DNA of 64,000 bases, from the NCBI GenBank assembly GCA_051313645.2, contig JBNRSN020000001.1, positions 145,886,001-145,950,000 of the forward strand. The letters run 5' to 3'. Shown here piece after piece: positions 15,449 to 64,000 of this stretch (positions are counted from its first letter, which is position 1; each line of letters starts with the position of its first letter). The notes under the pieces are model-generated. The model made no database searches, was not told the DNA's origin, and worked only from the letters and a program-made list of their open reading frames with translations. The DNA is from Centroscyllium fabricii (Eukaryota). A program made the translations under genes and the position numbers.

Positions 15449-18023
15449 CACTGGCTCCTCTATTTTCTAGAAATTTGGATGGCGATCCATAATTCTGGAT
15501 CTTCCTCATTACGCAGGGCCAGAAAAAAAACGGGCAGGAAATTCATTCTAATATGTAATTTAGAAGGGGTTAACATTGGTTTCTCTGGCGCACTATTTCA
15601 CAACATTCGTGAATTAAGCTGAGTGAGGTTTACACCCATAAAACCTCAGCATCCAGAGTTGCTTGAGAATCAACTATAGTCATACGAGAATAATTCTGAC
15701 TTCAATAGAATTAAAAAACGGGAGATGGAGAATGAATTCACTATCACCCGTTTTATATTATCGCATAAAGTCAAAATTACACAATGTTCATTTAAAAAGC
15801 CGAGTAAGAAGATTCATCGGACAGTCCTAGAACATAGAAAATGTCCTGAGGCCATTTCTCAACTTTTTTTGTGCTTTTGCTGTTGCCACTTGTATTTGTT
15901 TGCCTTCCCCCACGCCCCCAGCCAATGGGTTTCTCAATAGGAATCTCCCTATTTGAACTTTTTACAGGAAGAAAAGAACCAACGAATGGACATCAGACAG
16001 AGCAGACATCACCAGGCATGCTCTGTGCTCACCCACCAGTACCTGCACACATGCATCTACAGATAGAGGTGCATTTCCTTCGCTTTTGATATGTGAAGGC
16101 CTGACTATTGTAATTCTGAATGTGAACTCCCCAGTCACAGTGTTTCATTCTTCCAGTGGTACTGCAGGAAAGAGGGAATGCTCAATAAGCAGTATCGCCT
16201 GATTGGCTGCACTTCCCAAGTAGCTGTCTGCCCTGACCTGGCAACCATTGAACTAGAGCCTCATACAGCCCTCATGAAAAGTCTGGAGCCTATGAGAATA
16301 CAAGGCCAAATCTTGAATTGTATCTAGGATATCTAATCCAGCTCCAAGATTCATGTGAAGGTGGATGGGAGACTCACTGGGGAGAAGTTTATCCTTGTTG
16401 CATCTGTTTTCCAGGTGGAAAATGGGAGGCTAAAAGGACCAATTTCACAGGGCTATGTCCCACACCCCAATATTGTCCTCAGACGATATTCAGGTATCCC
16501 AGGCAGTCCTCTTAAACATCATTAGTCCTCTTGAATATGTCAATAAGGAGCCTAACGCCTGTTTAAGCACCTTATCCAGACCTGCTCCACTCAGTTTTTA
16601 CAATGTTTACTGTGGTCTAATCAGCGCCACAAACAAATAGGTATGTTTTTTTCTAATTTTATCTTCACGTGGACCCAGGAGAAACAGGAGTGCTCCTCGT
16701 GGCTCCACCGCACTCCTGAGTCTGCTGTTGGTGCGTGCTAGCCTCGTACCATTCTCCTTCCATCTACCCCCTACGACCTACCTTAGGGCCACTGCTGGCA
16801 AGACAACCAGTCCAAATGGAAATATTCAAGCTGGCTCTGGAGGGGTGACAGATGTCAGGGACCAATTTCGGGAGATCCTTGGTCCGATCTCTTCAGATGT
16901 GCATTGCGGTTGCACCACCTGTTTCGTGCCCATAGTCTGGTGCTAGCCAATTTCCACCCATTGAATTTGTTCCTTGCAAGAAGACTGAGGCAAAGTTGTG
17001 CACTCTTACCCATCCTACTTGTGTCTTCATCAATGATGTGTTGGGTGACATTATACTTATACTTGGAGAGTTTTTTCAAGGCATTTCTGAAAATATTGCG
17101 CTCACCTGGTAAACTAGCTTACTCTACTCACCATCTTGAACCATGGGGTTACCAGTGTTGGGTGCCCCACAATGCAATATTGTGGCCTTGCATGACCTTT
17201 GGAAGATAGAGGGGCATCAGTTCCAATTGTTATTTCATATCGGTACCTGGAAGTCCTAATGAATGCCAGCCTCAGCCTGGACACAGTCCTTCATTTGAGT
17301 GCCTACAGATTTCAGTGCCGAAACCTGTGACATGAAAGCTTTAAGATCATCCAAGAGCTAAATTGGATGAAGAGACATCAGCCTAGTTGTTTGAGAAAGT
17401 CTGGACCAAGTCTCGGACTGGCTAGAGGCAGGAAGGGGCTGCTCCATCACAACAGCCTGCTTGCTAATTAAGTTTAAGGGATCAGTAGCTCGGGCAATCG
17501 CATCCTAGTATAACTGGTTTAGGTGGATAACCAAAGCTCTGGGAGCTTAGTTGTAAAGCGCAGGCATTGTACAGCTGGCAGTGTGCTGCACGTGTACTGC
17601 AGACATTGGACTGCAGGCTGGGGTTGAGGTTAGGTGGAGACTGTGGTGATATTGAACAACTTCTGGGGGAAGGTTGAATGGTGAACACTGTACATGTCAC
17701 TTCCTGTGCCCAGGTAGTATAAATACTGGAGCTGCTCAGTATGGGGGAATGCTTCATCTGGAAGTATGGTAAAACCCACCCTTGTAAATAGTGACAATAT
17801 AGTGGATTAAAACTTTACTTTAGAGTTATTGATGTATAAGACTCGTTTATTACATCAATTTAATCCACTAAAGACATCACGCTCAAAATCCTTAAAACCT
17901 TTGGACAACTCGGAACTGAGGTTCCAGGGAACTACCCATCATGGAAAGCATTCTTAGACCTAAAAGTCTTGATCTGGACCCAAACGCAACAGCAGCTGCC
18001 AAGGTATGGAAGCATTGGTACCA

Positions 18024-18850
18024 CATTGCTAAGGGGATTGAGTATAAAAGCAGGGAGGTCTTGCTGCAGTTGTACAGGGTATTGGTGAGACCACACCTGG
18101 AATACTGCGTGCAGTTCTGGTGTCCCTATTTAAGAAAGGACATACTTGCTCTCGAGGCAGTGCAGAGAAGATTCACTAGGTTAATTCCGGGGATGAGGGG
18201 GCTAACATATGACGAGAGGCTGAGTGGATTGGGCCTCTACTCATTGAAGTTCAGAAGAATGAGAGGCGATCTTATTGAAATATATAAGATTGTGAGAGGG
18301 CTTGATCGGGTGGATGTGGTGAGGATGTTCCCAATGGTGGGTGAGATTAGGACTAGGGGGCATAATCTTAAAATAAGGGGCTCCCATTTCAAAACTGAGA
18401 TGAGGGGGAACTTCTTTACTCAGAGGGTGGTGCGGCTGTGGAATTTGCTGCCCCAGAGAGCTGTAGAAGCTACTACGTTGAATAAATTTAAAACTGAGAT
18501 AGACAGTTTCCTGGAATTAAAGGGAATTAGGGGTTATGGTGAACGGGCTGGTAAGTGGACGTGAGGCTAGGTTCAGATCGGCCATGTGATCTCCTGGACC
18601 AGTTTTCGATCGCCTAGATGGGTCGGAGAGGAATTTTCCTGATTTTTTTTTTCTCCAAAATTGGCTACTGTTTTTTTTTAATCTGGTTTTTCACCTCTCC
18701 CAGGTGATCACATTGGTCTGGGTGGGGTGGAGAGTAAAAATAAAATTGAGGTTAGGATCAGATCAGCCATGATCTTGTTGAATGGCGGAGCAGGCTCGAG
18801 GGGCCGATTGGCCTACTCCTGCTCCTATTTCTTATGTTCTTATGTTCTTA
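18024..18850 (+). mobile_element. 5'-truncated CR1 LINE inserted in gag of A
   Basis: LVRPHLEYCVQFW...LEAVQRRFTRLIPG...FFTQRVVRLWNLLP; (ttatgttc)n tail; gag frame resumes after it. Confidence 0.92.
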
Positions 18851-21505
18851 TACCTTTGAGAACTTTCTTGAAGAATGTAATACGGATGTTACGACTAAAC
18901 TGAGGATACTTGTGAACTATGTGTCCCCAAATGTGTATGAATATGTTGATAAATGGGAAAGCTATGATACTGTAATCCAAGCACTTAAAGAACTATATAC
19001 TAAGACCCCAAATGAGGTCTATGCTAGACATCTACTGTCCATGGCCCGACAAAGGCCAGGGGAATCAATTAACAAATTCCTTCAAGAGCTTCGCAGGATC
19101 AGTGTAGATTGTAACTTTAAGGCAGCCTTGGCTGAGGAGTACTGCAAAGAAAAGATTTGAGATGCTTTCATCTGCGGGATTGCCTCTCCATTTATACGCC
19201 AGCGTCTACTAGAGAAGAAAACGCTTGAGCTACAAAGGGCTTTTGAGCTGGCTTGTTCTCTGGACTTGGCAAAAAGAAATGCAGACCTCTATCAGCTGCC
19301 CAGATCTCAAACTGCTGCTGCAACTGCAATCAAACCATTCAAGGGGCCTCAAGTGGACCCTATCATGGAAGAATCTAGTCCTGATGAGTTCAGTGATGAG
19401 GAGGAGGATGACCCCACTTTAGCAGCCTCTTGGCAATCTAGGAAGAAATGTTTCTTTTGTGGAGATTTTTTCACCCTAGGAAATTCTGCCCTGCTCACAA
19501 TGCGATCTGCAGTCATTGCAATAAAAAGGGACACTTTGCAAAAGCTTGCCAATCAAGAGCCTCTACAAGGGCCTATCAAGCTAAAGCCTACCGAACTGCC
19601 CCAATTAGGGCCTATCAAGATGCTCCAGCTAGGACCTATCGAGCTCCCTCCCGAAGAAGCACACTTAGAGTTACAGCCACTCTCTGTGCAACCACACCAA
19701 TTACAGCTGCTTGCTCTCAAAGCTTGTTTCATGCAGCTACAAAAGTTTCAATTAATGGGCATACCTTAGATGCCTTAATTGACTCAGGAAGTACTGATAG
19801 TTTCATTAAAGAACAGATTGTTGAGAAATTGAAACTACATATCTTCCCATTGGACCAGGCAATTGCAATGGCTCAGTCATCACTTAATACCAGAATCTCT
19901 GGCTTTTGTATTATTGACATGACACTTAATGGCCACATGTATCCCTCCACCCGACTCTCGGTGCTCAAGGACTTATGTAGTGATCTCATCCTAGGGCTGG
20001 ATTTTCAAAAACAGCATAAAAAACTCATCATTGAGTTCAGCGGATCCAAACCTGGACTTACTATTTCTAATATACCGTCTATTACCATCTAAATTACCGT
20101 TTTGTGCACTATCAGCAGCTTCACTTGATGAACCCTCATTATTCGCCAGTATTCCTCCTCAATGCAAACCAATAATAACCAAATCTCGAAGCTTCAGTCA
20201 GGAAGATCAATCTTTTATTGAGACGGAAATCTCTCGACTTTTAGCAGAGGATATCATCGAACTATGTTCATCGCCCTGGCGGGCTCAAATCGTCATCATT
20301 AAGAACCCTCTAAAACCCCACAAAAAACAACTATGCATTGATTATTCTCAAACCATCAATCAATATACTGACCTGGACGCCTACCCATTGCCACGCATTG
20401 ATGACATGGTTAATAAACTGGCCGAATACAAAGTGTTCTCAACTTATGATTTAAAGAGTGCCTATCATCAGGTACCCTTAAAGGTCTCAGATAAGAAGTA
20501 CATGGCCTTTGAGGCTAATGGACGGCTGTACCAATTTCATCGCCTCCCATTCGGGGTCACTAATGGAGTGGCTGTCTTCCAATGAGCAATGGATGTCCTG
20601 GTTAAGCAGGAAAACTTAAGGGGCACTTTTCCCTATCTTGATAACATTACTATTGCAGGCCATGACCAGCAGGAACATGACGCCAACCTCCGAAAATTTC
20701 AGGTGCCCTCCATCACCGTAACTTAACTTTAAATGAATCCAAATCTGTGGAATCGTAACCGACCATCAACATTCTTGGCTACTGCATAGGCAATGGTATC
20801 ATTAAACCAGATCCGGAAAGACTTCGCCCGCTCCAGGAGCTCCTTCCACCTAACAATCCGGCTTCTTTACATCGGGCCCTCAGTCTGTTTGCATACTACG
20901 CTAAATGGATTCCGAATTTTTCAGATAAAATTCAATCCTTGCTGAATGCTAGAACATTTCCATGGGGAACAGTGGCTGTTGCAGCCTTTAACCTTCTCAA
21001 GAAACAGTTGGAGAAAGCAGCTCTTCACTCCATCAACGAGAACCTCCCTTTCGTAGTCGAATGTGATGCCTCGGAGGTGACGACCTCAGCTACTCTAAAT
21101 CAGGAAGGTCGCCCTGTAGCATTTATGTCCAGAACCTTACAAGGTGCCGAGATACATTATCCTCCGGTTGAGAAGGAAGCCACAGCCATTATAGAGGCGG
21201 TACGGAAGTGGAACTATTTCCTAGCTTGTCGGCACTTTACATTAATCACGGACCAGCGATCAGTCGTCTTCATGCTCGATAATCAAAAATGAACTAAAAT
21301 TAAGAACAATAAAATACAGCTTTGGAGAATGGAATTGGCCTCTTTTGGTTACACCATTCACTATCGACCTGGCAAGGAGAATGTGGCACCAGATACCCTC
21401 ACATGAGCATTCTGCTCCGCTATGTCATCCTCTACTCTCATAAATATCCATGATGGATTGTGCCATCCTGGCGTGACTCGCATGCTACATTTCGTGTGAT
21501 CACGG

Positions 21506-24500
21506 TGATGTGCTAATCAATTATGCCAGTCTTTGGTGAATCGTAATCAAAGGCTTTTATTCGCTAAGAACAAGACCTGGTCCGCGATGAGTCCCGCCCG
21601 GAATGAGAGTCAGGTGGGTGGAGCATCCTCCTTTATACTCATACCCGGAGGCGGGGTCAGCTGCTCCAGGTCCTTACAGAAAGGAACAACTTTATTAGCA
21701 CAAACTATATACAATAATAACACAGTGTGAACTACACTAAATGGTTCACCACATTCACCCCTTCCTTAAAAAACAAGTCCCGCGGGGCGAACATCAGCAC
21801 TGCGTTATCAGTCTTTGAGGAGGTCGAACAGTCCGAGAAGACCTGCGAAGCAATGGTGATTCACATGAAAAAGCGGGAGTAGTCGCAATCGGAAAAGATG
21901 CTGACGGAGCTCCCGAAGTGAACAGGGACTCCACCGGTGCAAGAGGAGGTTCATACGCAGGAAGATCTGGTGGAGGTGTAGCAGCCGCCAGAGGTTGAGC
22001 AACGTGGTGAACTCCATCGTGCATTGTAGGTGGCAAGGGCCCCGATGTAATGTGTGCTGGTGAATGAAAAGTAGGCCCCTGTTGTTGAAGTGCGACCTGG
22101 GAGGGCAAGGGCTCCGCCAACAACTCCCCGTGAACGTCTCCAGCGGGCGCGTAGTCTCTAATCGAGACGGTATCCTCACGCCCGTCTGGGTACTCCACGT
22201 AAGCATACTGAGGGTTGGCATGCAGCAGGCGCACACGTTCAACAAGAGGGTCTGTCTTGTGCCCCCAGACATGTCTACGAAGCAGGACCGGCCCCGGGTT
22301 GGTAAGCCACGTCGGCAGCGACGTCCCCGAAGTCGATTTCCTGTGGAAAGAGAAGAGTCCCTCGTGAGGAGTGCAACCGGTAGCTGTACACAAAAGGGAA
22401 CGAGTAGCGTGGAGCGCATCCTGGAGGACCTCCTGCCAGTGGGAGGTTGGAAGGCCTTTGGATCGACGGGCCAGAGAAATGGCCTTCCAGATGGTCCCAT
22501 TAAACCGCTCTACCTGGCCATTCCCCCGGGGGTTGTAACTGGTCGTTCTGCTCGAGACAACCCCCCTCGCGAGCAGAAAGTGACGCAGTTCGTCGCTCAT
22601 AAAAGAGGACCCCCGGTCGCTGTGTACGAAGCCGGGGAGGCTGAAAATGGCGAATAGCGTGATAAAATGCTTTATCACTGTTGCACTCGTCATATCTGTG
22701 CATGGGAATGCAAAAGGGAAACGGGAGAACTCGTCGACCACAGTGAGGATGTACGAGTAACGATTGGTAAAGGGGAGGGGACCTTTAAAGTCCACACTCA
22801 GGCGCTCGAATGGGCGGGTGGCCTTGATGAGGTGCGCCCTGTCAGGCCTGTAAAACTGGGGCTTGCACTCAGCACAGACAGGGCACTCCTGCGTCATCGC
22901 CTTGATCTCCGCAATGGAATAAGGGAGATTGCGTGATTTGACGAAGTGAGCGAGGCTGGTGACCCCCGGGTGGCAGAGATTAGCGTGGAGGGTCTTCAGA
23001 CTAACCGACTGGGCACTGGCACACGATCCTCGGGACAGGGCGTCCGGGGGATCATTAAGCTTCCCTGGCCGGTACAGAATGTCGTACTCAAAGGCGGAGA
23101 GTTCGATCCGCCAACTGAGGATCTTGTCATTCTTGATCTTACCCTTCTGTTTATGGTGGAAAATAAACGCTACTGACCGCTGGTCAGTAAGAAGGGTAAA
23201 ACGCTTACCGGCCAAATAGTGGCGCCAGTGGCGCACTGCTTCCACAATTGCTTGGGCCTCTTTTTCCACTGAAGAGTGGCGGACTTCAGGGCCCTGTAGG
23301 GTACAGGAGAAGAAAGCAACGGGCCTGCCTGCCTGGTTGAGGGTGGCGGCCAGGGCGAAGTCTGAGGCGTCGCTTTCGACCTGGAAGGGGAGAGACTCAT
23401 CAATAGCGTGCATGGTTGCCTTGATGATGTCCTGCTTAATATGTGAAAATGCAATTTGGGCCTCTAATGGGAGCGGGAAGGAGGTAGCTCTGAGGAGAGG
23501 CCGGGCCTTATCAGCATAATGGGGAACCCATTGTGCATAATACGAGAAAAACCCCAGGCATCTCCTCAAAGATTTGGGGGAGTGCGGCAGAGGCAGCTCT
23601 TGAAGGGGGCGCATACGTTCGGGATCAGGACTGAGGACCCCGTTCTCAATTACGTAGCCGAGGATAGCACACTTATCCTCATTGTAAGTGAGGTTCAGAT
23701 GCTGGGCCGTACGGAGAAACCTGTCCAAATTGGCATCGTGATCTTGCTGATCATGGCCGCAGATCGTGACATTGTCCAAATACGGGAATGTGGCCTGCAA
23801 ATGGTACTGGTCAACCATTCGGTCCATCTCCCGTTGGAAGACCGAAACTCCATTGGTAACCCCAAAGGGGACCCGGAGGAAGTGAAAAAGGCGCCCATTT
23901 GCCTCAAAGGCAGTGTATTTACGGTCCTCAGCTCTGATGGGGAGCTGGTGATAGGCCGACTTAAGGTCGATCGTGGAGAAGACCTTATGCTGGGCAATCT
24001 GGTTGACCATATCATTTATCCTAGGAAGCGGATAAACGTCGAGCCCAGTGTAGCGGTTAATGGTCTGACTATAGTCAATGACCATGCGCTGTTTGTTGCC
24101 TGACTTAACCACTACCACCTGGGCCCGCCACGGGCTGTTACTGGCCTCGATGATGCCCTCCCGCAACAACCGGGCAACCTCTGCCTTAATAAAGGTGCGG
24201 TCCCCCGCGCTGTATCGCCGACTCTTGGTTGCAATGGGCTTGCAGTCAGGGTCAAGGTTGGCGAACAGCGAGGAGGGGTCTATCTTCAAGGTGGACAGAC
24301 TGCAAGAGGAGTGTGGTTGTGAGGCAGGGCAGTCGCGGCTGCTGACCGTGAGAGGAGGCAGGGGACCACCGTATGCCATCGTTAAGCTCTGCAGATGGCA
24401 CTGGAAATCCAGGCCAAGCAACACAGGGGCACAGAGCTGTGGGAGGACGTACAGTGGAAAGTTGCGGTATGTCGTCCCCTTCATGGTAATGGTGACTGTA

Positions 24501-24832
24501 CAGCAGCCGATGACGTCCACAGTCTGGGACTCGGAGGCGAGGGAGATTTTTCAATGCGTGGGCCTAACCCACGCATCGTAAAATTGATGCGCTAATCAAT
24601 TATGCCAGTCTTTGGTGAATCGTAATCAAAGGCTTTTATTCGCTAAGAACAAGACCTGGTCCGCGATGAGTCCCGCCCGGAATGAGAGTCAGGTGGGTGG
24701 AGCATCCTCCTTTATACTCATACCCGGAGGCGGGGTCAGCTGCTCCAGGTCCTAACAGAAAGGAACAACTTTATTAGCACAAACTATATACAATAATAAC
24801 ACAGTGTGAACTACACTAAATGGTTCACCACA
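21506..24832 (-). mobile_element. Gypsy element B, gag-deleted, nested in the integrase of A
   Basis: TSD cacgg; 248-bp LTRs 21506-21753 and 24585-24832 differing at 2 positions; open 908-codon pol frame 21794-24520. Confidence 0.95.
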
Positions 24833-26311
24833 CACGGACTCTCCCATTTTCTACTGGAGATATAAAGAAAATGTGCTCAGAATGCCGAATTTGTGCAGAA
24901 TTGAAATCTCAGTTCTTCCGCCCCTCAGATGATGCTCTCATACACGCAACCCAACCGATGCCCTCTTCAACACGGAACACATATTTGCTCACCATGATTG
25001 ACGAATATTCATGATTTCCATTTGCCTTCGTCTGCTCCAATATGCTGGCTTCCACAGTAATCAACTGCCTTGAGCAGGTATTTTCTCTCTGTGGCATGGC
25101 GGCCTACATTCACTCGGATCGGGGTCCATCCTTTATGTCAAGTGAACTCAAGGACTACCTCTCAGTACGGGGAATTGCTACAAGCAAAACAACGCCATAC
25201 CATCCCATCGGAAATGGACAGGTAGAGAGATATAACGGTATCATCTGGAATTCCGTACGTCTTGCTTTAAGATCTCAGGGCCTACCAAACCAGCAATGGG
25301 AAGCAGTGCTTCCAGATGCATTGCACTCTATACGGTCCCTTCTTTCTACAGCCACAAATACTACACCTCATGAACGGTTCATTAGATTCCAGCATCGCTC
25401 ATCTTATGGGACATCTCTTCCGCCATGGCTAACTACTCCTGGACCCATACTGCTCCGAAGATACGTTCGGACGTCTAAAAATGACCCTTTTGTGGATGAG
25501 GTCGAACTAACCGATGTCAACCCTACCTATGCCTACATACGATATCCTGATGGTCGAGAGTCATTACGGGACCTGGCTCCCTGCCCACCAGAACCTAGAG
25601 GGACACTGAGTGATAATACCCTACCAGGGGCCTCTAGGGACCCACCGGGTACCCCTCTCCAGGACCCTGATCTGACACCAACTAGCTTTGTGCCGGTAGA
25701 ATCCCACACTCGAAGTTGCGACGCGCCTAGTACCTCTTTCCAGGACGCTGACCAGACACTGACCGACTCGAAGCCCATGGGGGCTCGTACACGGAGTCAT
25801 GATCCTCCCAGTACCACATGCCAAAATACCAATCAGCCGCAGACCAGCTCTGTACCTCCCGCTGACCAGAGACAAACCAACTCTGCACCTATTGGAACTC
25901 GTACGCGGAGCTATGATCTCTCCGACCCATCACAGGGTAATCCAAGCCACACAAATTCCGACCAGTGGATAACAGCAGGTAAATGGTCCAGAGACCCAGA
26001 CATTGTACGTAGGGACGGGCTGTCAATCTTACGACGAGAACCCAAACGGGTGCGACTCTTCCTTGTTCAGTTACTCCGGAATAAAAAGAAGACCCCAGCC
26101 TTCTAATCTTGTAGGAGGGAAGAATGTGGTGATATTGAACAACTTCCGGGGTAAGGTTAAATGGTGAACTCTGTACATGTCACTTCCAGTGCCCAGATAG
26201 TATAAATACTGGAGCTGCTCATTTTGGGGGAATGCTTCATCTGGAAGTATGGTAAAACCCACCTTTGTAAACAGTGACAATATAGTGGATTAAAACTTTA
26301 CTTTAGAGTTA

Positions 26312-47068: not shown

Positions 47069-49199
47069 TCATACAGCATCCGTACACCTGATGGCCAGCT
47101 ACACAGACGCCACATAGACCAGCTACGGGGTTGTACTCCGGTGAGAGTAACAGACGTCACAGGCTAGGCCATTGTCTGCACCACCTCTGCCAGGCAGTGA
47201 TGGCATGCTTCCTGCAACAATGACTGAAGCCACATCAACAGAAGGTGTCACGGAGTCATCAGCCACGGAGGAAGGTTTTCCTTCAGCTAGTAGTGGCACC
47301 TTGACTATGCCTGCCCAGCGGCGCTCACGTCGGGTTAGATTCCATCCCAGACGCCTGGAGGACTAAAGGGTTTTATCTGGGGGAAAGGAGTGTTGTGTTT
47401 TGAGTTTGCTTTAATTAAGTTTGTCCCAGTGCCTGGGTGTTACCTGAAGGGAGGGGCCTGGGGGGTCCTGTTTGACTTTAGTTTCCCTTTCATTTTGGGG
47501 TTCTGCTTTGCAGACCATGTGCTGTAATGTCCACCAACTTACTCAGTAAATAGTTGACGTATCGTCAATAATACAAAGACGAGTAGTTACCTTAACTATA
47601 GGCTTTTAATAACTTAAAGATGGAGCTAGTCTCCAGTTGAACATCAGGTACAGAATGACTGGGGGCAGGGCAGACCTCACCTTTCAGGCTCCCACCTGAG
47701 GGGAGGAGTTAGAGGTGTGGCTGACCTAGCCTTACAACCGTGTTCCACATCTAATACATTCAATGCACCAAGCAACTATATACATGGGTCATGTGGTGCA
47801 GTACGATTACAATCCAACTATATACACTGGTAATATGATTATCACATTCACCCCTTCTTTGAAAATGAGTCCGGCGGGGTGAATGGAACATCACAGTGCA
47901 ACAAAAAAAAATTATGTGTCCGTATCAGCAATTTTCTATCAGTCTTTCGGGTGGTCGTGTCTGTCGTGATGACTGCCGGGGTTCCGGTAGCGGCGCTGGT
48001 GCCGGTTGTGGTGAAGGGGTCGGGTCCTCCGGCAACAGTGCCTGCAGCGTGGCGTCCGGCCCTGGGTTGTTGGCCGATAGCGTCGGGGGCCCCGGTGTGT
48101 GTGCGTATGTAGGCCAGTAATCGGTGGATGTTGGTTGATATGTAGGCCAGTGTTCGGTAGATGGTGGCTGGTCGGGCTGAGGCTCGACCGGGGGTTCTGC
48201 TCTAGTGCTCCCGGCGGGCGCTAGGTCTCTGATGGAAACTGTGTCCTTGCGCCCGTCCGGGAACTGCACGTAGGCATACTGCGGGTTGGTGTGCAGCAGC
48301 TGCACCTTTTCCACCAGGGGGTCGGTCTTATGGCCGCGGACATGTTTCCTAAGTAAGACCGGCCCCGGCGTCGTGAGCCACGGTGGGAGTGCTGTCCCCG
48401 AAGTCGACTTCCTGGGGAAGGAAAATAATAGGTCATGAGCTGTAGCGTTTGTAGCCGTACACAGCAGAGAGCGGATGGAGTGGAGCGCGTCTGGGAGGAC
48501 TGCCTGCCAACGGGACACTGGAAGGCCTCTGGACTTCAGGGCCAGGTTGACCGCCTTCCAGATGATCCCGTTCTCCCTTTCTACCTGGCCGTTCCCCCGG
48601 GGGTTGTAACTGGTCGTTCTGCTTGAGGCAACCCCTTTCTGAAGCAGAAACTGACGCAGTTCGTTGCTCATGAACGACGACCCCCGGTCGCTATGGATGT
48701 AGCTGGGGAGACCAAAAATGGCGAACAGCGTGGTGAAGTGTCTTATCACCATTGCGCTCATCATGTCTGGGCAGGGGAAGCGGGAGAACTCATCCACGAC
48801 CGTGAGGAAGTACGAGTTGCGGTCCGTGGAGGGGAGGGGGCCTTTGAAGTCCACGCTCAGACGTTCAAAGGGGTGAGTGGCCTTAATGATTTGCACCGTG
48901 TCTGGCCGGTAAAATTGGGGTTTGCACTCGGCGCAGACAGGGCACTCCTTGGTCATAGCCTTGATCTCTGTGATGGAGTAGGGAAGGCTACAGGACTTAA
49001 CGAAATGAGAGAGTCTGGTGACACCTGGGTGGCAGAGGCTATCGTGGAGGGCCTTCAGCCGGTCCAGCTGGGTGCTGGCACACATTCCCCTGGACAGTGC
49101 GTCCGGGGGTTCGTTGAGCTTGCCTGGGCGGTAAAGAATGTCATACTCGTAAGTCGAGAGTTTGATCCGTCACCGCAGGATCTTATCATTCTTGATTTT

Positions 49200-51391
49200 C
49201 ATAGAATCATAGAATCATAGAATCATAGAAGATAGGAGCAGGAGTAGGCCATTCAGCCCTTCGAGCCTGCTCCGCCATTCAATGAGATCATGGCTGATCT
49301 TTAGCAAGCTAGTACCCCGTCCCCGCCTTTTCTCCATAACCTTTAATCCCTTTAGCTTGAAGAAATATATCCAATTCCCTCTTGAATATGTTTAATGAAC
49401 TGGCCTCCACCGCCCTCTGTGGCAGGGAATTCCACAGGCCCACCACTCTCTGAGTGAAGAAATTCTTCCTCATGTCTGTCCTAAATGGTTTACCCCTTAT
49501 CCTTAGACTGTGGCCCCTGGTTCTGGACTCCCCCGCCATTGGAAACATTCTCTCTGAATCTAACCTGTCCAGACCTTTCAGAATTTTATACGTCTCAATG
49601 AGATCGCCTCTCAATCTTCTAAACTCCAACGAGTACAAGCCCAGACTACACAATCTCTCCTCGTAGGTCATTCCTGCCATTCCAGGAATCAGCCTGGTGA
49701 AACGCCGCTGCACTCCTTCCATGGCAAGAACATCCTTCCTCAGGCGAGGCGACCAGAACTGTACACAATACTCGAGGTGTGGTCTCAACAGTGCCTTGTA
49801 CAGCTGCAGTAAGGTATCCTTATTCCTATACTCGAACCCTCTTGATATGAAGGCCAACATACCATTTGCCTCCCTAACCGCCTGCTGCACCTGCGTGCTC
49901 GCCTTCAGCGACTGGTGCACAAGAACACCCAGGTCTCTCTGCAACTCCCCATCTCCCAATCTATTGCCATTTAAGTAGTAATTTACCCTCCTGTTTTTGC
50001 CCCCAAAGTGGATAACCTCACATTTATCCACATTATAGTGCATCTGCCATCTATCTGCCCAGTCCCCCAACTTATCCAAATCGCCCTGTAACTTCCTGAC
50101 ACCCTCTTCAGAGCCTGCCCCCCCTCCTAGTTTGGTGTCATCCGCGAATTTGGAGATATTACATTCAATTCCCTGATCCAGATCATTAATATATATTGTA
50201 AACAGCTGAGGTCCCAGGACAGACCCCTGCGGTACTCCACTAGTCACCGGCTGCCACTCAGAAAACGAGCCGTTAATTCCAACTCTCTGTTTTCTGTCTG
50301 CCAACCAGTTCTCTATCCACATCAAAACTTTGCCCCCAATCCCATGAGCCTTAATTTTACATGCTAATCTTTTATGTGGAACCTTATCGAAGGCTTTCTG
50401 GAAGTCAAGGTACACCACATCTACTGGCTCTCCCCCATCTATTTTCCGAGTTACTTCCTCAAAGAATTCCAATAGATTAGTTAAACATGATTTACCTTTT
50501 GTAAATCCATGTTGATTCTGTCCGATCTCATCCCTAATTGTCAAATGCTCCGAGATTACATCCTTGATAATGGACTCGAGCATTTTGTCCACTACTGATG
50601 TAAGGCTTACTGGTCTATAATTCCCTGCTTTCTCTCTGCCCCCCTTTTTAAATAGTGGGGTAACATTAGCCACCCTCCAATCCGTGGGTACTGATCCAGA
50701 GTCTATCGAGTTCTGGAAAATGATCCTTAAAGCACCCTCTATTTCCAGGGCTACCTCTTTAAGTACCCTAGGATGTAGATTATCAGGCCCTGGGGATTTG
50801 TCGGCCTTCAATCGCTTCAACTTCCCCAAAACCATCTCCCTAGAAATACTGATATCTGTCAGCTCCTCCCTTGCATTAGACCCTATGTTCGCTGCTATCC
50901 CTGGGAGGTTGCTTGTGTCCTCCTTTGTGAAGACAGTACCAAAATATGAATTTAGTTGGTCTGCCATTTCTTTATTCCCCATTATATATTCCCCTGAATC
51001 GGACTGCAAGGGACTGACTTGGGATTTTACCAATCTTTTCCTCTTGATGTACCTATAAAAGCTTTTGCAGTCAGTTTTTATGTTTGCCGCAAGCTTACAT
51101 TCGTAATCTATCTTCCCCCTCCTGATTAATCCCTTTGTCTTCCTTTGCTGTATCCTGAACTGCTCCCAATCTTCCGGCCTAGTACTTTTTTTGGCCAATT
51201 GATATGCCCATTTTTTGGATTTAATGTTGTCCCTTATTTCCCTTGTTATCCACGGTTGAGTCACCTTTCTAGGTTTATTCTTATGCCAAACCGGTGTGAA
51301 CGAGTTCTGTATTTCTTCCATCCTATACTTGAATGCTTGCCATTGTCTATCCACATTCAATCCCCCCAGGAACACTGCCCAATCTATCTTG
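49200..51391 (-). mobile_element. 5'-truncated CR1 LINE with uninterrupted RT frame, inserted in the RNase H of C
   Basis: 688-aa open frame (KSPGPD, YRPVSLTS, YLDFQKAFDKV, GVPQGSVLGP, FADD); (gattctat)n tail; near-TSD cttgatttt/cttaatttt. Confidence 0.95.
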
Positions 51392-53039
51392 CTTAATTTT
51401 ACCCTTTTGTTTATTGTTAAACATAAACGCGACCGACCGTTGGTCGGTGAGCAGGGTAAAACGCTTACCGGCCAGGTAATGACGCCAGTAGCGCACTGCC
51501 TCCACGATGGCCTGGGCCTCCTTCTCCACTGCTGAGTGGCGAGTTTCGGGTCCCTGTAGGGTGCGGGAGAAAAACGCTACGGGCCTGCCTGCCTGATTCA
51601 GGGTGGCGGCAAGGGCAAAGTCCGAAGTGTCACTCTCCACCTGGAAAGGGATGGACTCATCGACGGCGTGCATGGTCGTCTTGATGATGTCTTCCTTAAT
51701 CAGGGCGAATGCCATTTGGGCTTCTACTGAGAGGGGGAAGACATCAGCCTTGAGGAGCAGTCTGGCCTTATCCGCGAACTGGGAAACCCATTGCGCGTAA
51801 TAGGAGAAAAATCCCAGACATCTCCTCAGGGCTTTGGGGTTGTGAGGTAGGGGCAGTTCCTGTAAGGGACGCATACGCTGTGTGTCGGGGCCGAGGACCC
51901 CGTTCTCCACCACGTATCCGAGGATAGCGAGCCGATCTGTACTAAAGACGCACTTGTCTTTGTTGTATGTGAGATCGAGCCGTTTCGCCGTGTGGACAAA
52001 TTTGGCACGGTTGGCATCGTGGTCCTGCTGGTCATGGCCGCAGATGGTCACGTTGTCCAGGTAGGGGAAGGTGGCCTGCAACCCGTTCTGGTCAGCCATA
52101 CGGTCCATCTCCCTTTGGAATACCGACACTCCGTTGGTCATGCCGAAGGGGACCTGGAGGAAGTGGTAGAGCCGACCGTTCGCCTCGAAGGCGGTGTACT
52201 GGCGGTCGGATTTCCGGATTGGGAGTTGGTGATACGCCGACTTAAGGTCGATTGTTGAAAAGACCGTATACTGGGCGATCTGGTTAACCATATCCGAGAT
52301 GCTGGGAAGGGGGTAGGCGTCGAGCCCGGTGTAGCGGTTAATCGTCTGGCTGTAATCGACCACCATCCGCAGTTTCTCGCCGGTCTTAACCACTACGACC
52401 TGGGCCCGCCAGTGGCTGGTGCTGGCCTCAATTATCCCCTCTTGCAGCATACGCCCGACTTCCGACCTGATAAATGCCCGGTCCCCTGCACTGTAACGCC
52501 GACTCTTTGTAGCAATAGGTTTGCAGTTGGGGTCGAGGTTGGCGAACAGCGAGGGGGGGTCGACTTTCAGGGTGGATAGGCCGCAAGTCGGGCTCCACTT
52601 TACGAAGGGATTGTCCCGGCTTCTGACGGTGAGGGGGGCCAAGGTCCCGCCGAACTCCATTGTCACGCTCTTCAGGTGGCACTGGAAATTCAGTCCCAGT
52701 AAGACTGGGGCGCACAACTGCTGGAGTATGTACAGTCTAAAATTACGGTACACGCAGTCTCTGACCATGAGCGTGACGAAGCAGTAGCCGGTGACGTCCG
52801 CCGTGTGGGACTTTGAAGCAAGGGAGATTTGGTAGCGCGTGGGCAGGGTCCGCAGTGCGTAGCGCCGCACTGTGTCGGGGTAGATGAAGCTCTCTGTGCT
52901 TCCGGTGTCGAACAGGCAGTTTGTAATGTGACCGTCCACTTTAATCCCCATCATGGAATTTGATAGGGTGTGCGGCCTAGCCTGGTCGACAATGGCTGAG
53001 GCCGAAGTGTGTGTGTGTGTGTAGGGGCCCTCCACTAGC

Positions 53040-53450
53040 TGGGGCCGTGCACAAGATGGCGGCGCCCGTGGTTCGCACGCAGCCGACCGCGGTGGACAAG
53101 ATAGCGGCGCCGGGGAGTCGCACATGGCTGGCTGCTGGAAACAAGATGGTGGCGCCGGGGAGTCGCACGCAGCCGACCGCGGTGGACAAGATGGCGGTGC
53201 CGGGGAGTCACACATGGCTGGCCACTGGGAACAAGATGGCGGCGCCGGGGAGTCGCACATGGCTGGCCGGTGGGGACGAGATGGCGGCGCCCATGGTTCG
53301 CACGCGGCAGACCTCGGTGGACGAGGTGGCGGTGCCCGTGGTTCGCACGCAGCGGACCGCGCTGGGCGAGGAGGCGGTGCCCATGGTTCGCACGCAGCGG
53401 ACCGCGCTGGGCGAGGTGGCGGCTTTGGGGGGTCACACATGGCCGGCCGC
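53040..53450 (-). repeat. 45-bp tandem repeat between gag and protease of C
   Basis: About nine units encoding (A/P)(A/M)C(E/D)xxAPPxxPxR. Confidence 0.9.
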
Positions 53451-54605
53451 GGCCGCCATTGGCATGGCGGTGTCCGTGCCGTGCGCGCGGCCGGCCTCTG
53501 CTGTACAGGGACGGGAGACAGAGGCGCCTGTGGTTTACCCCCAGGCCGCTGCTGGGTCGCTCTGCAACAGCAGTTTACCTTAGGCCATGGGATGGCGTTG
53601 GAGCTCTCGCACGCTGTTGGATCTGGAGCTGTGCGCTGGGGCCAATTTGCAGGCCCTGGCGTAGTGTCCTTTCTTGCCGCATCTCTCGCAGGTCGCGCTC
53701 TTCGCAGGGCATTTCGCTCGCGGGTGTAGTCCCTGGCCGCAGAAGTAGCATCTACGCTCCGACGGCGTCTTCGCAGCTGCCGTTGCCATCGTGGGGTTCT
53801 CAACCTGTCGTGGGGCCGCCCAGGGATCGAGGGTATCGTATGGGCCTTGGCCGCCATACGCCTCTAGGTTGCGGCGCGCTCCGTCCACTGCGTTGGAGAT
53901 GGAGATCGCCTCCTCCAGTGATAGAGTGTCCTTTTCCAATAACCGCTGGCGGGCCTGGTTGGACCTGATTCCAGCCACGTATGCGTCCCGTACGAGGAGA
54001 TTTGTCTCCTCCTGCGCCGTTCATGGCAGGCAGTCACAGGCCCGAGCGAGGGCTTGAAGCGCCAACAGATATTGTTCGTTCGACTCACCGAGCCGCTGTT
54101 GTCTGGTCGCCAGGACGTGTCTGGCATAGACCGAGTGGACCGGGCGCAAGTAGCATTCCTTCAGTTTCTTCACCGCCTCTGTGTACGTCGTGAGGACGCG
54201 GATGAAGGAGTACACCCGGCTACTGATTCTGGACGAGAGGACGTGTAGTTTGTCCCCATCGCTCGTCGCCTTTGCGGCCTCCATGTAGGCCTCGACAAGG
54301 CTGAACCAATGTTCAAAAGTGTTGGCGGCGGCTGGTTCCTGTGGATTGATATCCAATTTTTCGGGTTTCACAGCGCCGCTCTCCATTTCAAAAATTAAGT
54401 TATTAAAATTGACGTATCGTCAATAAAACAAAGGCGAGTAGTTACCTTAACTATAGGCTTTTAATAACTTAAAGATGGAGCTAGTCCCCAGTTGAACATC
54501 AGGTACAGAATAACTGGGGGCAGGGCAGACCTCACCTATAAGGCTCCCACCTGAGGGGAGGAGTTAGAGGTGTGACTGACCTGGCCTTACAACCGTGTTC
54601 CACAT

Positions 54606-57600
54606 TGACGTATTGAGTAAAAGACTCAACGAGTAGTTACCGTAACTATAGGCTTTTAATCACTTATTTAGGAGCTACCCTCCGAACGAACATCTAAGCA
54701 GGAATGAGGGAGCCTCAGTCAGTCTCCACCTATAAAGGCCTCACCTGGGGGAGGAGTTAGAGGTGTGGCTGACCTGGCTCCCGACAGTGTTACAGGGCTG
54801 TGTATCACACATACACAGCCAATTATTGGCAACAAGAATACAGTGGTATACATAACATTATGGGTTACCACATTCACCCCTTCTTGAAAATTTTAAGTCC
54901 GGGGGGGTGAATGGACCGAGCAGTTCAATATCAGCCTATCCGGTGGTCGTGCCAGCCTGGAGGACCGCCGGAGTTCCGGTGATGATCCTTCATGGTCCGT
55001 GCTGCTCGAGTCCGCTGGTGGTGACAGTTGCCCTGGTGCCATGGTTTCGGGTGGTGATGGTCTCCGCTGGTCCGAGCTATCGGAGTGGTGGTCCTGGGTT
55101 GGCCACTGCTGGGGCTCTGGAAAACTCGGAGGCCATTGTAGGTGTAGGGGGTGTTCTGGATACTGTGGCTGAGCGGCCTGCTGGCCGACCAGGGGCTCTG
55201 CGGTGCTTCCTGCGGGCACCAGGTCCCTGATAGATACGGTGTCCTCACGCCCGTCCGGGAACTGCACGAATGCGTATTGCGGGTTCGCATGCAGGAGCTG
55301 CACCTTGTCCACTAGGGGCTACGGGATCTGACGAAGTGGGCGAGTCTTGTGGCCTCGGACGTGTCTTCTAAGGAAGACCGGCCCCGGTGTCGTGAGCCAT
55401 GGAGGAAGAGCTGTCCCCGAAGTCGACTTCCTGGGAAAAGCAAAAATCAAGTCATGAGGAGTTGCGTTAGTGGCCGTACATAGGAGAGAGCGTATAGAAT
55501 GCAGCGCGTCTGGGAGGACTGCCTGCCAATGGGCCACTGGAAGGCCTCTGGACTTCAGAGCCAGGATGACCGCCTTTCAGATGATCCCATTCTCCCTTTC
55601 TACCTGGCCGTTCCCCCGGGGGTTATAACTGGTCGTTCTGCTCGTGGCAACCCCTTTCTGGAGCAGAAACTGATGCAGTTCATCGCTCATGAACGATGAC
55701 CCCCCGGTCGCTATGGATGTAGCTGGGGAGACCGAAAATGGCGAACAGCGTGGTGAAGTGTTTTATCACCGTTGCGCTCGTCATATCTGCGCAGGGGAAG
55801 GCGAAGGGGAAGCGGGAGAACTCATCTACAACCGTGAGGAAGTATGAGTTGCGGTCGGTGGTGGGGAGGGGGCCTTTGAAGTCCACGCTGAGACGTTCAA
55901 AGGGGCGGGTGGCCTTGATGAGGTGCACCGTGTCTGGCCGGAAAAATTGGAGTTTGCACTCGGCACAAACAGGGCACTCTCGGGTCATAGCCTTGATCTC
56001 CGTGATGGAGTAGGGGAGGCTACGGGATCTGACGAAGTGGGCGAGTCTGGTGACACCCGGGTGGCAGAGGCGGTCGTGGAGGTCCTTCAGCCGGTCCAGC
56101 TGGGCACTGGCGCACGTTCCCCTGGACAGTGCGTCCGGGGGTTCATTGAGTTTCCCTGGTCGGTAAAGAATGTCATACTCGTAAGTCGAGAGTTCGATCC
56201 GCCACCGCAGGATCTTATCATTCTTGATCTTACCCTTCTGTTTATTATTAAACATAAACGCCACCGACCGTTGGTCGGTGAGAAGGGTAAAACACTTACC
56301 GGCCAGGTAATGACGCCAGTAGCGCACGGCCTCCACGATGGCCTGGGCCTCCTTTTCCACTGCTGAGTGGCGAGTTTCGGGTCCCTGTAGGGTGCGGGAG
56401 AAAAACGCTACGGGCCTGCCTGCCTGATTCAGGGTGGCAGCAAGGGTGAAGTCTGAAGCGTCGCTCTCCACCTGGAAGGGAATGGATTCATCAACAGCGA
56501 GCATGGTCGCCTTGATGATGTCTTCATTTATCCGGGCGAATGCCGTTTGGGCTTCTACCGAAAGGGGGAAAACGGCAGCCTTGAGGAGTGGTCTAGCCTT
56601 GTCCGCGAACTGTGGGACCCATTGTGCGTAATAGGAGAAAAATCCTAGGCATCTCCTCAAGGCTTTAGGGTTGTGAGGTAGGGGCAGTTCTTGAAGGGGT
56701 CGCATACACTGTGGGTCGGGGCCGAGGACCCCGTTCTCAACCACGTATCCGAGGATGGCGAGCCGATCTGTATTAAAGACAAATTTGTCTTTGTTATACG
56801 TGAGGTCCAGCTTATCCGCCGTGTCGAGAAATTTGGCCAGATTGGCATCGTGGTCCTGCTGGTCGTGGCCGCAGATGGTCACGTTGTCCAGGTAGGGGAA
56901 GGTAGCCTGCAACTCGTTCTGGTCAACCATGCGGTCTATCTCCCGCTGGAACACTGACACCTCCGTTGGTCACGCCAAAGGGGACCCGGAGGAAGTGGTA
57001 GAGCCGACCGTTCGCCTCGAAGGCGGTGTAGGGGCGGTCGGCTTTCCGGATCGGGAGTTGGTGATACGCTGACTTAAGGTCGATCGTGGAGAACACCTTG
57101 TACTGGGCGATCTGATTGACCATTTCCGAGATGCGGGGAAGGGGGTAGGCGTCGAGCCCGGTGTAGCGGTTGATGGTCTGGCTGTAATCGATCACCAGCC
57201 GTTGTTTCTCGCCAGACTTTACCACTACAACCTGGGCGCGCCAGGGGCTGGTGCTGGCTTCAATTATCCCCTCCTTCAGCATCGGCCCGACCTCCGACCT
57301 GATAAACGTGCGATCCCCCACACTGTACCGCTGACTCTTGGTAGCAATAGGTTTGCACTTGGGGTCGAGGTTGGCGAACAGTGAGGGGGGGTCGATTTTC
57401 AGGGTGGAGAGGCTGCAGGCCGGGCTCCGCTTTGGGAAGGGACTGTCCCGGCTACTGACGGTGACGGGGGGCAAGGACCCGCCGAACTCCATTGTCACGC
57501 TCTTGAGGTGGCACTGGAAATCCAGACCTAGTAAGGCTGGGGCATACAACTGCTGGAGGGTGTACAATTTAAAATTACGGTACACGCACCCCTTGACTGT

Positions 57601-59445
57601 GAGCGTGACGGAGCAGTAGCCGGTGACGTCCGCGGTGTGGGACTTTGAAGCAAGGGAGACTTGGTAGTTTGTGGGCAGGATCTGCAGTCCGCAGCGCTGC
57701 ACTGTATCGGGGTGCACAAAGCTCTCCGTGCTTCCAGTGTCAAATAGGCAATTAGTAGTATGGCCGTTTATTTTGATGGGCATTATTGAGTTAGACAGGG
57801 TGTGTGGCCTGTCCTGGTCCACTCTGGGTATGGCTGAAGCAGACGTGTGCTTTTGTGTGTGTGGGCCCCCTGCTGGTTGGGGCTGTATACAAAATGGCGG
57901 CGCCCCTGGCTCGCACATGGTGGGGCCCTGGAGACAAAATGGCGGCGCCCCTGGCTCGCACATGGTGGGGCCCTGGGGACAAAATGGCGGCGCCGAGGGG
58001 TCGCACATGTTGGGCCGCTGGGGGCGAGATGGCGGCGCCCGTGGTTCGCACGCGGCTGACCGCTGTGAGCGCGCTGGCGGCGCCCGTGGTTCGCACGCAG
58101 CGGGCCGCGGTGGCTGGGTTGCCGGTGCCCATGGTTCGCACGCAGCGAGCCGCGGTGGTCGGGTTGGCGGTGCCCGTGATTCGCACGCAGCCGGCCGCAT
58201 TGGGTCTGCTGCTGGCGTTGGGGGGTCGCGCTTGGCCGGCCTTTGCCGCCTCAGGGTGGTAGATGGGGGCGCTTTCCTCCTACCCCCGGACTGTCGCTGG
58301 ATCGCGCTGCTATTGCAGCTTACCTGAGGTCTGTCACTTTCACAGGCTGCGCTGTTGTACCTGGAGTTGGGCACTGTTGGTGCTGATCTGCAAGCCTTTG
58401 CGTAATGTCCCTTCTTGGCGCACCTCTCACAGGTCGCGGTCCTTGCTGGGCATCTCGCTCTTGGGTGCAGTCCCTGGCTGCAGAAGTAGCGGCGTTTGTC
58501 TTTTGTGGCTGTCGCAGCCATCGTGGGGGTGTCGACCTGTTGTGGTGCTGCCCAGGCCTGGGTCCGTTGTGGCGCGGCCCACATGTCGTAGGCCTGCGGG
58601 TTTGTGCCGCTGTAAGCTTGTAGTTTGTTGCGTGCTCCTTCCACGGAGTTAGATATAGCAATCGCGTCTTCGAGGGACAAAGTGTCTTTTTCGAGCAGCC
58701 GCTGGCGGGCCTCCACGCACCTTAGTCCAGTTACATACGCGTCTCGGACGAGGAGGTTCGCCTCCTCTTCTGCTGTCCGGGCTTGGCAGCCACAGACCCA
58801 TACCAGGGCCTGGAGCGCTTGCTCAAATTGTTCATTAGTCTCACCCGGTAGTTGTGGTCTGGTCGCGAGCACATGTCTGGCTTAGACCGAATGGACCGGG
58901 CGCTCGTAGCATTTCCTCAGCTTTTCCACTGCCTCTGGGTAGGTTTTGGCGTCTCGGATGAGGGAGAATACTCGGCTGGAGATCCTGGACCGGAGAACCT
59001 GTAGCTTGTTCCCGTCGGTTGTAGCCTTGGCGGCGTCCATATAGGCCTCCAGGAGACCGAACCAGTGTTCGAACGTGGTGGCAGCGGCAGGGTCCTGTGG
59101 ACTGATATCCAGCTTTTCTGGCTTTACTGCACCGCTCTCCATTTTAAAACTTTAAGTGATTAAAATTGACGTATCGTCAATATCTCAGAGTAAAAGACTC
59201 AACGAGTAGTTACCGAAACTATAGGCTTTTAATCACTTACTTAGGAGCTACCCTCCGAACGAACATCTAAGCAGGAATGAGGGAGCCTCAGTCAGTCTCC
59301 ACCTATAAAGGCCTCACCTGGGGGAGGAGTTAGAGGTGTGGCTGACCTGGCTCCCGACAGTGTTACAGGGCTGTGTATCACACATACACAGCCAATTATT
59401 GGCAACAAGAATACAGTGGTATACATAACATTATGGGTTACCACA
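54606..59445 (-). mobile_element. Gypsy element D (YLDN lineage) inserted in the 5' LTR of C
   Basis: TSD cacat; LTRs 54606-54872 and 59167-59445 (2 substitutions plus a 12-bp indel); gag ATG at 59142; gag-pol nearly intact with a few lesions. Confidence 0.95.
57885..58200 (-). repeat. 45-bp tandem repeat between gag and protease of D
   Basis: About seven units encoding xxCEPxAPP. Confidence 0.88.
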
Positions 59446-59747
59446 CACATCTAATACATTCAATGCGCCAAGCAACTATATACATGGGTCATGTGGTGCA
59501 GTACGATTACAATCCAACTGTATACACTGGTAATATGATTACCACAATAGTTAAAAGTACATTCCGTCTCCTCTGCTCATTGCTGTTCGGTCAAGATGCA
59601 ATACATATATTTGACCAAACTGAGAACTTTGAATCAATGTTTTATGTGGTAATGATTGTTAGTGTATTGGATAGTAAGGTTGCTCCAGGGCTCATGACCA
59701 AGATGAAATGGTAATATCATGGAAACATGTAACTTAATTAGATGTGA

Positions 59748-62910: not shown

Positions 62911-63514
62911 GTTCTTGCCTTGAATCAAGGCACTGACACGTGCTCCATAAACAAACCATCTTTTTACATACTAATTAATAAAATAATCAGGATAGAGTTA
63001 AGCACACTGATACCCATCAGAGGGATTGAAATTAAATTAAAGAGGAACATCGAATTTGGAATTCTAAAATTCAGAGTTGGGTTCCCTTGATTTAACACTG
63101 AAATTGCAACAATTGAGGGCTAGGGAGAAATAATAATCATTCAGAATTATCCACAAGATGGATAACAGTAAAAGGACTGCTGTGTAATCTTTTAAGCCCA
63201 AGGGATAGTTTCTTTATAATATCGTAGTATTTGGGGGAGCTTCATTTTCACTGTCGTTTCTGTACAATGCTTTGGGCCATTTACTGTGGTAGGGCATCTA
63301 ATGCATCTGCCATTAATTAGACTTAACCTTGCACGTTTAGGTTTTTAAAATTTTTGTGCGGCAAGTTACTGGAAGTGCAAGCTGATAACGTCACAGCAAG
63401 GGAAACTGGGCACCTGGAATCTGAGTGAACAGGAAAACCAATTGTACAATAAGATCGAAGGATTGTGAAATTAGTAGCGCAAGGACTGAGAAGGAACTGT
63501 AAGTTCGAATGGGT

Positions 63515-64000
63515 CTGCGTGGTCGGAGCACTGGGGCCTGTGTGGTCAGAGCACTGAGGTCGGCGTGGTCGGAGCACCTGTGTCGGCGTGATCGGAGCAC
63601 CGGGATCGGCATTATCAGAGCACCGGGGCAATCGTGGTCGGAGCACTGGGGTCGTCGTGGTCGGAGCACTGGGGTCATCGTGGTCGGAGCGCCGGGGTCG
63701 GCGTGGTTGGAGCACCGGGGTCGGCGTGGTTGGAGCACCGGTGTTGGCGTGGTCGGAGCACCAGGATCGGCGTGGTCGGAGCACCGGGCTCGATGTGGTC
63801 AGAGTACCGGCGTCATCGTGGTCGGAGCACTGGGGTCATCGTGGTCGGAGCGCCGGGGTCGGCGTGGTTGGAGCACCGGGGTCGGCGTGGTTGGAGCACC
63901 GGTGTTGGCGTGGTTGGAGCACCAGGATCGGCGTGGTCGGAGCACCGGGCTCGATGTGGTCAGAGTACCGGCGTCATCGTGGTCGGAGCACCGGGGTCAG
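63515..64000. repeat. GC-rich 23-bp minisatellite running off the window end
   Basis: Unit cgtggtcggagcaccggggtcgg, more than 20 copies. Confidence 0.95.

Follow-up and report, generated by a model that had tools for sequence, protein, structure and literature searches.

Reverse transcriptases (RTs) are regarded as having, without exception, an active site of three aspartates, and a copy whose YxDD box reads YxDN is usually taken to be dead. Engineered forms of the same change are known from yeast LTR retrotransposons. According to the accessible part of the Ty1 study, the mutant D211N retains polymerase activity, with kpol lowered 223-fold, a preference for Mn2+ and poor pyrophosphorolysis, and does not transpose, and suppressor mutations in RNase H restore 5-10% of its transposition (PMC2148107). 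The Ty3 mutant D214N is described, in the available part of its account, as active in vitro and lethal to transposition in vivo (PMC5371799). The role of the third aspartate in metal choice, pyrophosphate release, translocation and the balance with RNase H has been a question since the work on Ty1 D211N. Priming from the element's own RNA is likewise known, for Tf1/Sushi, Tcn1 and TAR, as stated in the accessible portion of PMC6317226.

The window analyzed here, a stretch of 64,000 nucleotides of Centroscyllium fabricii DNA, contains four elements (A to D) with YLDN at this site, so that the canonical D...YxDD triad is absent. To judge from the domain order and the element ends, their clade consists of Gypsy LTR retrotransposons, old and widespread in animals: the pol order is protease, RT, RNase H and integrase (Pfam on P0001, P0004, P0009 and elements C and D), the LTRs run TG...CA, and a polypurine tract and 5-bp target duplications are present. 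The best match of the RT among solved structures is Ty3 RT (PDB 4OL8, E 5.7e-25). No chromodomain was found on the integrase among the Pfam matches of P0001, P0004 and P0009, and no env frame lies between integrase and 3' LTR in L051-L054 and L056, in which about 45 nt separate the end of gag-pol from the 3' LTR.

Four elements of one lineage in the window

The sequence-only reading had reported YLDN in all four elements together with a retained upstream aspartate, and this was borne out: the motif falls on the YLDD of Ty3 RT in alignment, and DLKSAY with the first catalytic aspartate is present in all four (at 20448, 23968, 52249 and 57081). The features are collected in Table 1.

Table 1. 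Elements, RT motifs and leader-R pairings in the window
Feature	Positions	Strand	Remarks
Element A, decayed Gypsy LTR retrotransposon	17642..26311	+	5' LTR 17642-17857; 3' LTR from 26125, incomplete
R-leader pairing, A	17800..17870	+	R segment 17800-17811 with leader 17859-17870, 12 bp; helix predicted to serve self-priming
DLKSAY (RT motif A), A	20448..20465	+	first catalytic Asp present
YLDN, A	20634..20645	+	third catalytic Asp to Asn; in FPYLDNITI (20628-20654); codons GAT AAC; homologous to Ty3 YLDD
Element B, nested inside A	21506..24832	-	5-bp target duplication CCGTG
YLDN, B	23771..23782	-	FPYLDNVTI; codons GAC AAT
Element C	47554..54604	-	3' LTR from 47554; 5' LTR split by D, upstream part 59446-59546
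YLDN, C	52052..52063	-	FPYLDNVTI; codons GAC AAC
R-leader pairing, C	54395..54472	-	R segment 54459-54472 with leader 54395-54408, 14 bp; encloses two U5 hairpins
Element D, inserted into 5' LTR of C	54605..59445	-	target duplication ATGTG
YLDN, D	56883..56894	-	FPYLDNVTI; codons GAC AAC
R-leader complementarity, D	59153..59239	-	R segment 59227-59239 with leader 59153-59165, 13 bp

None of the four copies is intact. Element A is interrupted twice, by B and by a LINE fragment within gag, and its pol carries an in-frame stop and frameshifts; the pol of C is broken by a LINE fragment near 49200-51380, and that of D contains frameshifts. Element B has lost about 1.7 kb, comprising most of the leader, gag and the start of protease, and its RT lacks 7 codons that are kept by 22 of 23 readable relatives; a perfect 9-bp hairpin lies at the deletion junction (about 24556-24578). 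The claim that B and D have near-identical LTRs also held, with 2 mismatches in 248 nt for B and 2 in 258 nt for D (99.2% identity in each), and the pairs of A and C are 94.2% and 95.9-97.0% identical. Since B combines the loss of gag with such LTRs and an intact target duplication, it transposed or was copied without gag, and trans-mobilization thus occurs within the family. In both nestings host element and insert belong to the one clade, B having entered A (17642-26311) and D the 5' LTR of element C (47554-59546), which may reflect chance or a targeting bias, given a mean of one copy per 34 kb. Tandem repeats of two kinds were also observed, one of 45 nt inside gag-pol, after gag and ahead of protease (C, 52999-53523; D, 57837-58271), the other a 23-nt array at the end of the window (63442-63999). 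A fifth YLDN (FVYLDNILV, 9488-9499, forward strand) stands in an unrelated Gypsy lineage and is a product of CpG decay.

Genome-wide census and distribution across animals

The codons around the motif had been read as arguing against independent decay, an argument that stood only in part. The GAC AAC of C and D is exactly what CpG decay makes of GAC GAC, with a real case at 9488, so that the window alone cannot settle the matter; GAT AAY contexts are nevertheless common among the genomic YLDN matches, and a census of the genome rules decay out. A 32-letter pattern run over the 7.2-Gb genome returned 212,287 copies with YLDN and 288 with YLDD, YxDN thus accounting for 99.86% of 212,575, as against 3.8% decay to YLDN in an ordinary Gypsy family, that of the 9488 copy (2,834 Asp and 111 Asn of 2,945). 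The control change, A to G one base further on (YLDS), was found in 462 copies, more than the 288 with YLDD, which therefore lie at the background level of mutation. With a looser pattern the counts were 214,552 Asn and 1,725 Asp; of eight sampled Asp loci outside the first pattern, seven belonged to other Gypsy clades at 24-30% identity and one had no match, and neither pattern revealed an amplified Asp family of the clade in this genome. On a tree of the first 20 of the 288 YLDD copies and 44 YLDN copies (the first 40 listed and the four from the window), the former scatter among the latter with 17 changes: the YLDD copies are scattered point mutants.

The sequence-only reading had also named, as the outcome that would overturn it, a family or youngest intact copies carrying YLDD. 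The census gave the opposite for the family, and all eight copies selected for long open frames (1,295-1,524 codons), which like the set of 30 loci were found with an Asn-bearing query, read YLDN; their LTR pairs are 93.9-99.0% identical in seven and 83.6% in one. The amplified families of this genome have asparagine at the site by inheritance, and with an average copy of full length they would add up to about 1 Gb.

Beyond this genome, the best 120 of 1,230 homologues comprise 100 YxDN, 19 YxDD and one YLGN, the best 120 of 1,009 shorter homologues 88 Asn, 28 Asp and 4 others, and the best 80 of 509 metagenome loci 55 Asn, 21 Asp and 4 others. Named carriers of asparagine include Scyliorhinus, Hypanus, Narcine, Mobula, corals, Dicrocoelium, Spirometra, Trichinella and Plakobranchus, and named carriers of aspartate Trichonephila, Oedothorax, Ischnura, Cyamophila, Caligus and Trichuris. 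Ten homologue clusters were examined, eight of which are of the Asn type (one member reads YLEN) and two entirely Asp (9/9 and 11/11 covered members). Of 150 representatives chosen at 50% identity, 148 span the motif. The ones with at least 40% identity, taken as the in-group, divide into 59 Asn, 49 Asp and 3 others, and those below, an out-group of RTs without names, are Asp in 37 of 37. The 105 in-group rows placed on the tree fall on one side of a branch with an SH-aLRT of 100 and a stem length of 0.71, and the clade has the diagnostic residues WR[AS]Q and DY[SA]xT[IV]N. As placed by tree and homologues, the trait characterizes a single metazoan clade of Gypsy elements with sharp limits, present in corals, flatworms, nematodes, molluscs, arthropods, sharks and rays. 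Judged by the close relatives of the elements, the host would be a shark or ray.

On trees built after taking out the motif column, at least 14 changes of state were counted over 125 rows, and about 26-28 changes between Asp and Asn on 207 dereplicated rows (332 of 388 having been kept before dereplication). These reconstructions show the site toggling between the two residues only inside the clade; the out-group has Asp.

Scanning of IMG/VR found no clade members. Some clade elements (L140, L141, L142-L144) and proteins (P0013, P0052) sit in bacterial MAG assemblies, annotated as bacterial integrases, and are probably host contamination. Five metagenome contigs (L059, L060, L080, L081, L129) are short, about one element long, with terminal repeats, and may represent either collapsed repeats or one-LTR circles.

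Pairing between the leader and the R segment

No TGG primer site follows the 5' LTR, to judge by the start of the leader: the terminal CA of the LTR is followed by ATTT in 20 of 22 elements and by ATCT and GTTT in one each. From one base past this CA, the leader shows complementarity to an R segment whose last bases form a hexamer resembling a poly(A) signal, followed in most cases by [GA]CC. For A, C and D, folding gives a single helix that encloses a pair of U5 hairpins, and in copies of the B family the pairing extends to 15 bp. Among the 22 elements, 262 of 264 positions pair; at nine of the first 12 the type of pair differs in more than a single exception or several types occur, cross-pairing between elements reached at least 11/12 in only 17 of 462 trials, and a similar pairing scan was matched by 1 of 200 shuffles. 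These figures are evidence of covariation and not of frequency, because the 22 elements were chosen for having the pairing; among metagenome loci, 21 of 80 showed it, and upstream DNA is missing from many of the others.

Such complementarity likely serves self-priming. The helix may have two roles, as the source of the primer and as a cover for the 5' poly(A) signal, and is possibly a distinct self-priming route. The paired segment is probably internal to the RNA rather than its first bases, since the hexamer stands at its end and since in B it lies about 64 nt after a TATA-like box.

The pairing also occurs beside an aspartate motif, in locus L094, which has a true YLDD and pairs at 11/12; among 13 Asp-type or Asp-like loci examined, it was the only one with true YLDD and an intact leader. 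A further candidate for an Asp-type locus with the stem, L095, was dropped, its codon being AGC, one step from Asn.

Selection, mechanism and competing explanations

The proposed dN/dS check speaks for a selected enzyme. Pairwise comparison of copies gave a median between-family dN/dS of 0.082 for RT (66 pairs with dS above 0.3; 53 of 136 pairs saturated), the values for RNase H, integrase and gag being 0.061, 0.14 and 0.225. Selection on the RT between families is strongly purifying. All of the 101 Asn rows have the first two aspartates. At three acidic positions of RNase H the covered rows retain the residue with a single exception, the fourth is seen as DALSR in 7 of 8 long-frame copies, and TDQ is present in Asp and Asn forms alike.

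Structure prediction had been suggested as a means of finding compensating residues, and what it gave was fold and confidence: the model of the RT and RNase H of element C (pLDDT 84.3) has a normal RT palm, with CaMV, MMLV and Ty3 RT as top matches. In the alignments, no column obligately covaries with the asparagine. The strongest association is at position -2 of motif A, which by HIV-1 RT topology presumably lies on the strand adjoining the Asn: Lys or Arg occurs there in 25 of 78 Asp rows and in none of 129 Asn rows, and Thr in 31 and 108 of these, respectively. For each of the three rates used, 0 of 600 single-column simulations on the tree reproduced this. Over a set of 752 features, the family-wise counts were 118/2,741, 229/1,209 and 248/457 (p 0.04-0.54, depending on the rate), and tests on independent pairs were not significant, with 7-9 supported pairs and no power. 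The pattern is suggestive only of a basic residue tolerated with Asp and not with Asn.

Since both Ty1 D211N and Ty3 D214N polymerize in vitro, the third acid is one that the RTs of LTR elements can partly spare. In our judgment the present clade has very likely made it optional. Its RT likely polymerizes DNA with only two active-site aspartates, and the family amplified in this genome likely copies itself with the altered enzyme, although the same change stops the yeast elements from moving. In the mechanism proposed, the two retained aspartates would bind both metals, and the side chain of the asparagine would preserve the third residue's shape and carbonyl. Changes that the whole clade shares, and that date from its long stem branch, would have made the third acid optional, allowing both Asp and Asn forms to transpose. 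The candidates are WR[AS]Q, DYSxT[IV]N together with one inserted residue, NG[VA] in place of NAP, and Thr at +2 and Gly at +5 after the site, and the stem is their most likely place because Asp and Asn members share the diagnostic residues. Minus-strand synthesis likely begins on the element's own RNA, from the leader-paired R segment, the 3' end of the primer being freed by a predicted cut in the RNA.

A more ambitious form of this proposal remains tentative, and we consider it rather doubtful as a whole. It would have an optional third carboxylate, replaced in its role by small polar residues on neighboring strands and the loss of a nearby basic residue, self-priming from the poly(A)-signal end of R by a route that is undescribed, and a two-aspartate form fully competent and driving one of the largest LTR expansions in any vertebrate genome.

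The sequence-only reading had combined two ideas, a natural two-aspartate RT and its co-adaptation with priming. The first is strongly supported, as a fixed and selected YxDN, by the census, the controls, dN/dS and the cross-phylum homologues, activity being inferred. The second, which found no support, can be framed as an adaptation of the asparagine to the self-priming RNA structure, with a slower polymerase that would suit the release of the primer by an RNase H cut, and it is partly compatible with an optional third acid. The clade that tolerates Asn is also the one without a tRNA primer site, self-priming could have relaxed the site on the stem branch, RNase H mutations rescue Ty1 D211N, and the RNase H of the present clade has TDQ. 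Yet TDQ occurs in both states, the site has toggled repeatedly within the clade as the diagnostic residues stayed, whole young Asp families exist (the two all-Asp clusters above), and the YLDD of L094, a single locus, has the same pairing, so that an adaptation of this kind is unlikely.

That the working enzyme nevertheless contains aspartate, through A-to-I editing of the AAY codon or deamidation of the asparagine, is very unlikely. A single A-to-I event would turn AAY into GAY, intact homologues accept only Asp or Asn at the site, and deamidation would leave no trace in DNA. Asparagine followed by Val or Ile, as at this motif, is however a slow context for deamidation. Editing should moreover have left an excess of YLDD in the genome, as the full-length RNA doubles as template, and the copies with YLDD are instead scattered and fewer than the control mutants; weakly in the same direction, no T>C at 56885 appears among the differences listed for runs X5, X9 and X10 (assembled contigs only).

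Copying in trans by the YxDD enzyme of another element, the Asn RT being catalytically dead, would agree with the loss of transposition in the Ty1 and Ty3 mutants and with the mobilization of the gag-less element B, and other Gypsy families with YxDD are present in the same genome. A dead enzyme would hardly be expected to show an RT dN/dS below those of integrase and gag or to keep its other two aspartates throughout the Asn rows; with no amplified Asp family of the clade found by the two genome patterns, and Asn families persisting across phyla, we regard such copying as highly improbable. Decay at CpG or chance in dead copies, to which the GAC AAY of B, C and D and the motif at 9488 would conform, has a probability close to nil in the face of the census, the common GAT AAY contexts and an asparagine common to several phyla.

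Comparison with known systems

Two named elements considered as relatives proved unrelated: PwRn1, a CsRn1 element with tRNA-Trp in the accessible part of PMC2582038, and Helenus/Ajax, from what is available of PMC10886601. No natural YxDN lineage of RT is reported in the full-text literature searched, though Repbase, GyDB, subscription journals and supplements may record one. Among the 30 of 69 matches listed from the self-priming literature, no paper concerns the clade by its title or the start of its abstract.

Cigr-1 has LTRs of about 245 bp and 5-bp target duplications. In the available parts of the two accounts, the Cigr-1 clade of Gypsy comprises a founder from Ciona and members in molluscs and annelids, with no mention of YxDN or of priming (PMC6238403, PMC8556966); Cigr is not mentioned in PMC2774666 and PMC3013669, and PMC3670739 names Cigr2 only. 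The host range overlaps with that of the present clade, which has a mollusc homologue (P0230), the comparison being by description and not by sequence.

With Tf1/Sushi, Tcn1 and TAR the elements share a primer site complementary to their own LTR rather than to a tRNA, and they differ from Tf1/Sushi in being without a chromodomain. The primer of Tf1 is formed by the first bases of its RNA. Ty3/Gypsy, represented by Ty3 RT (PDB 4OL8), agrees with the clade in RT fold and alignment, domain order and ends, from which the clade departs in YxDN, in having no tRNA primer site and in joining gag and pol in one frame of about 1,500 codons that starts about 20 nt past the LTR. A natural asparagine in place of the second aspartate of the motif is found in the GDN motif C of the polymerases of non-segmented negative-strand RNA viruses; those are RNA polymerases in which the Asn is fixed within the group, and the enzyme here is a reverse transcriptase that toggles.

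Annotation rules that require YxDD would throw out a major lineage of more than 200,000 copies, of which activity is inferred, and the many natural Asp/Asn sister enzymes of the clade offer material for measuring the role of the third aspartate. With Ty1 D211N and Ty3 D214N the substitution and its position are the same: there, the engineered mutants are immobile, whereas here the asparagine is natural and stands in over 200,000 copies.
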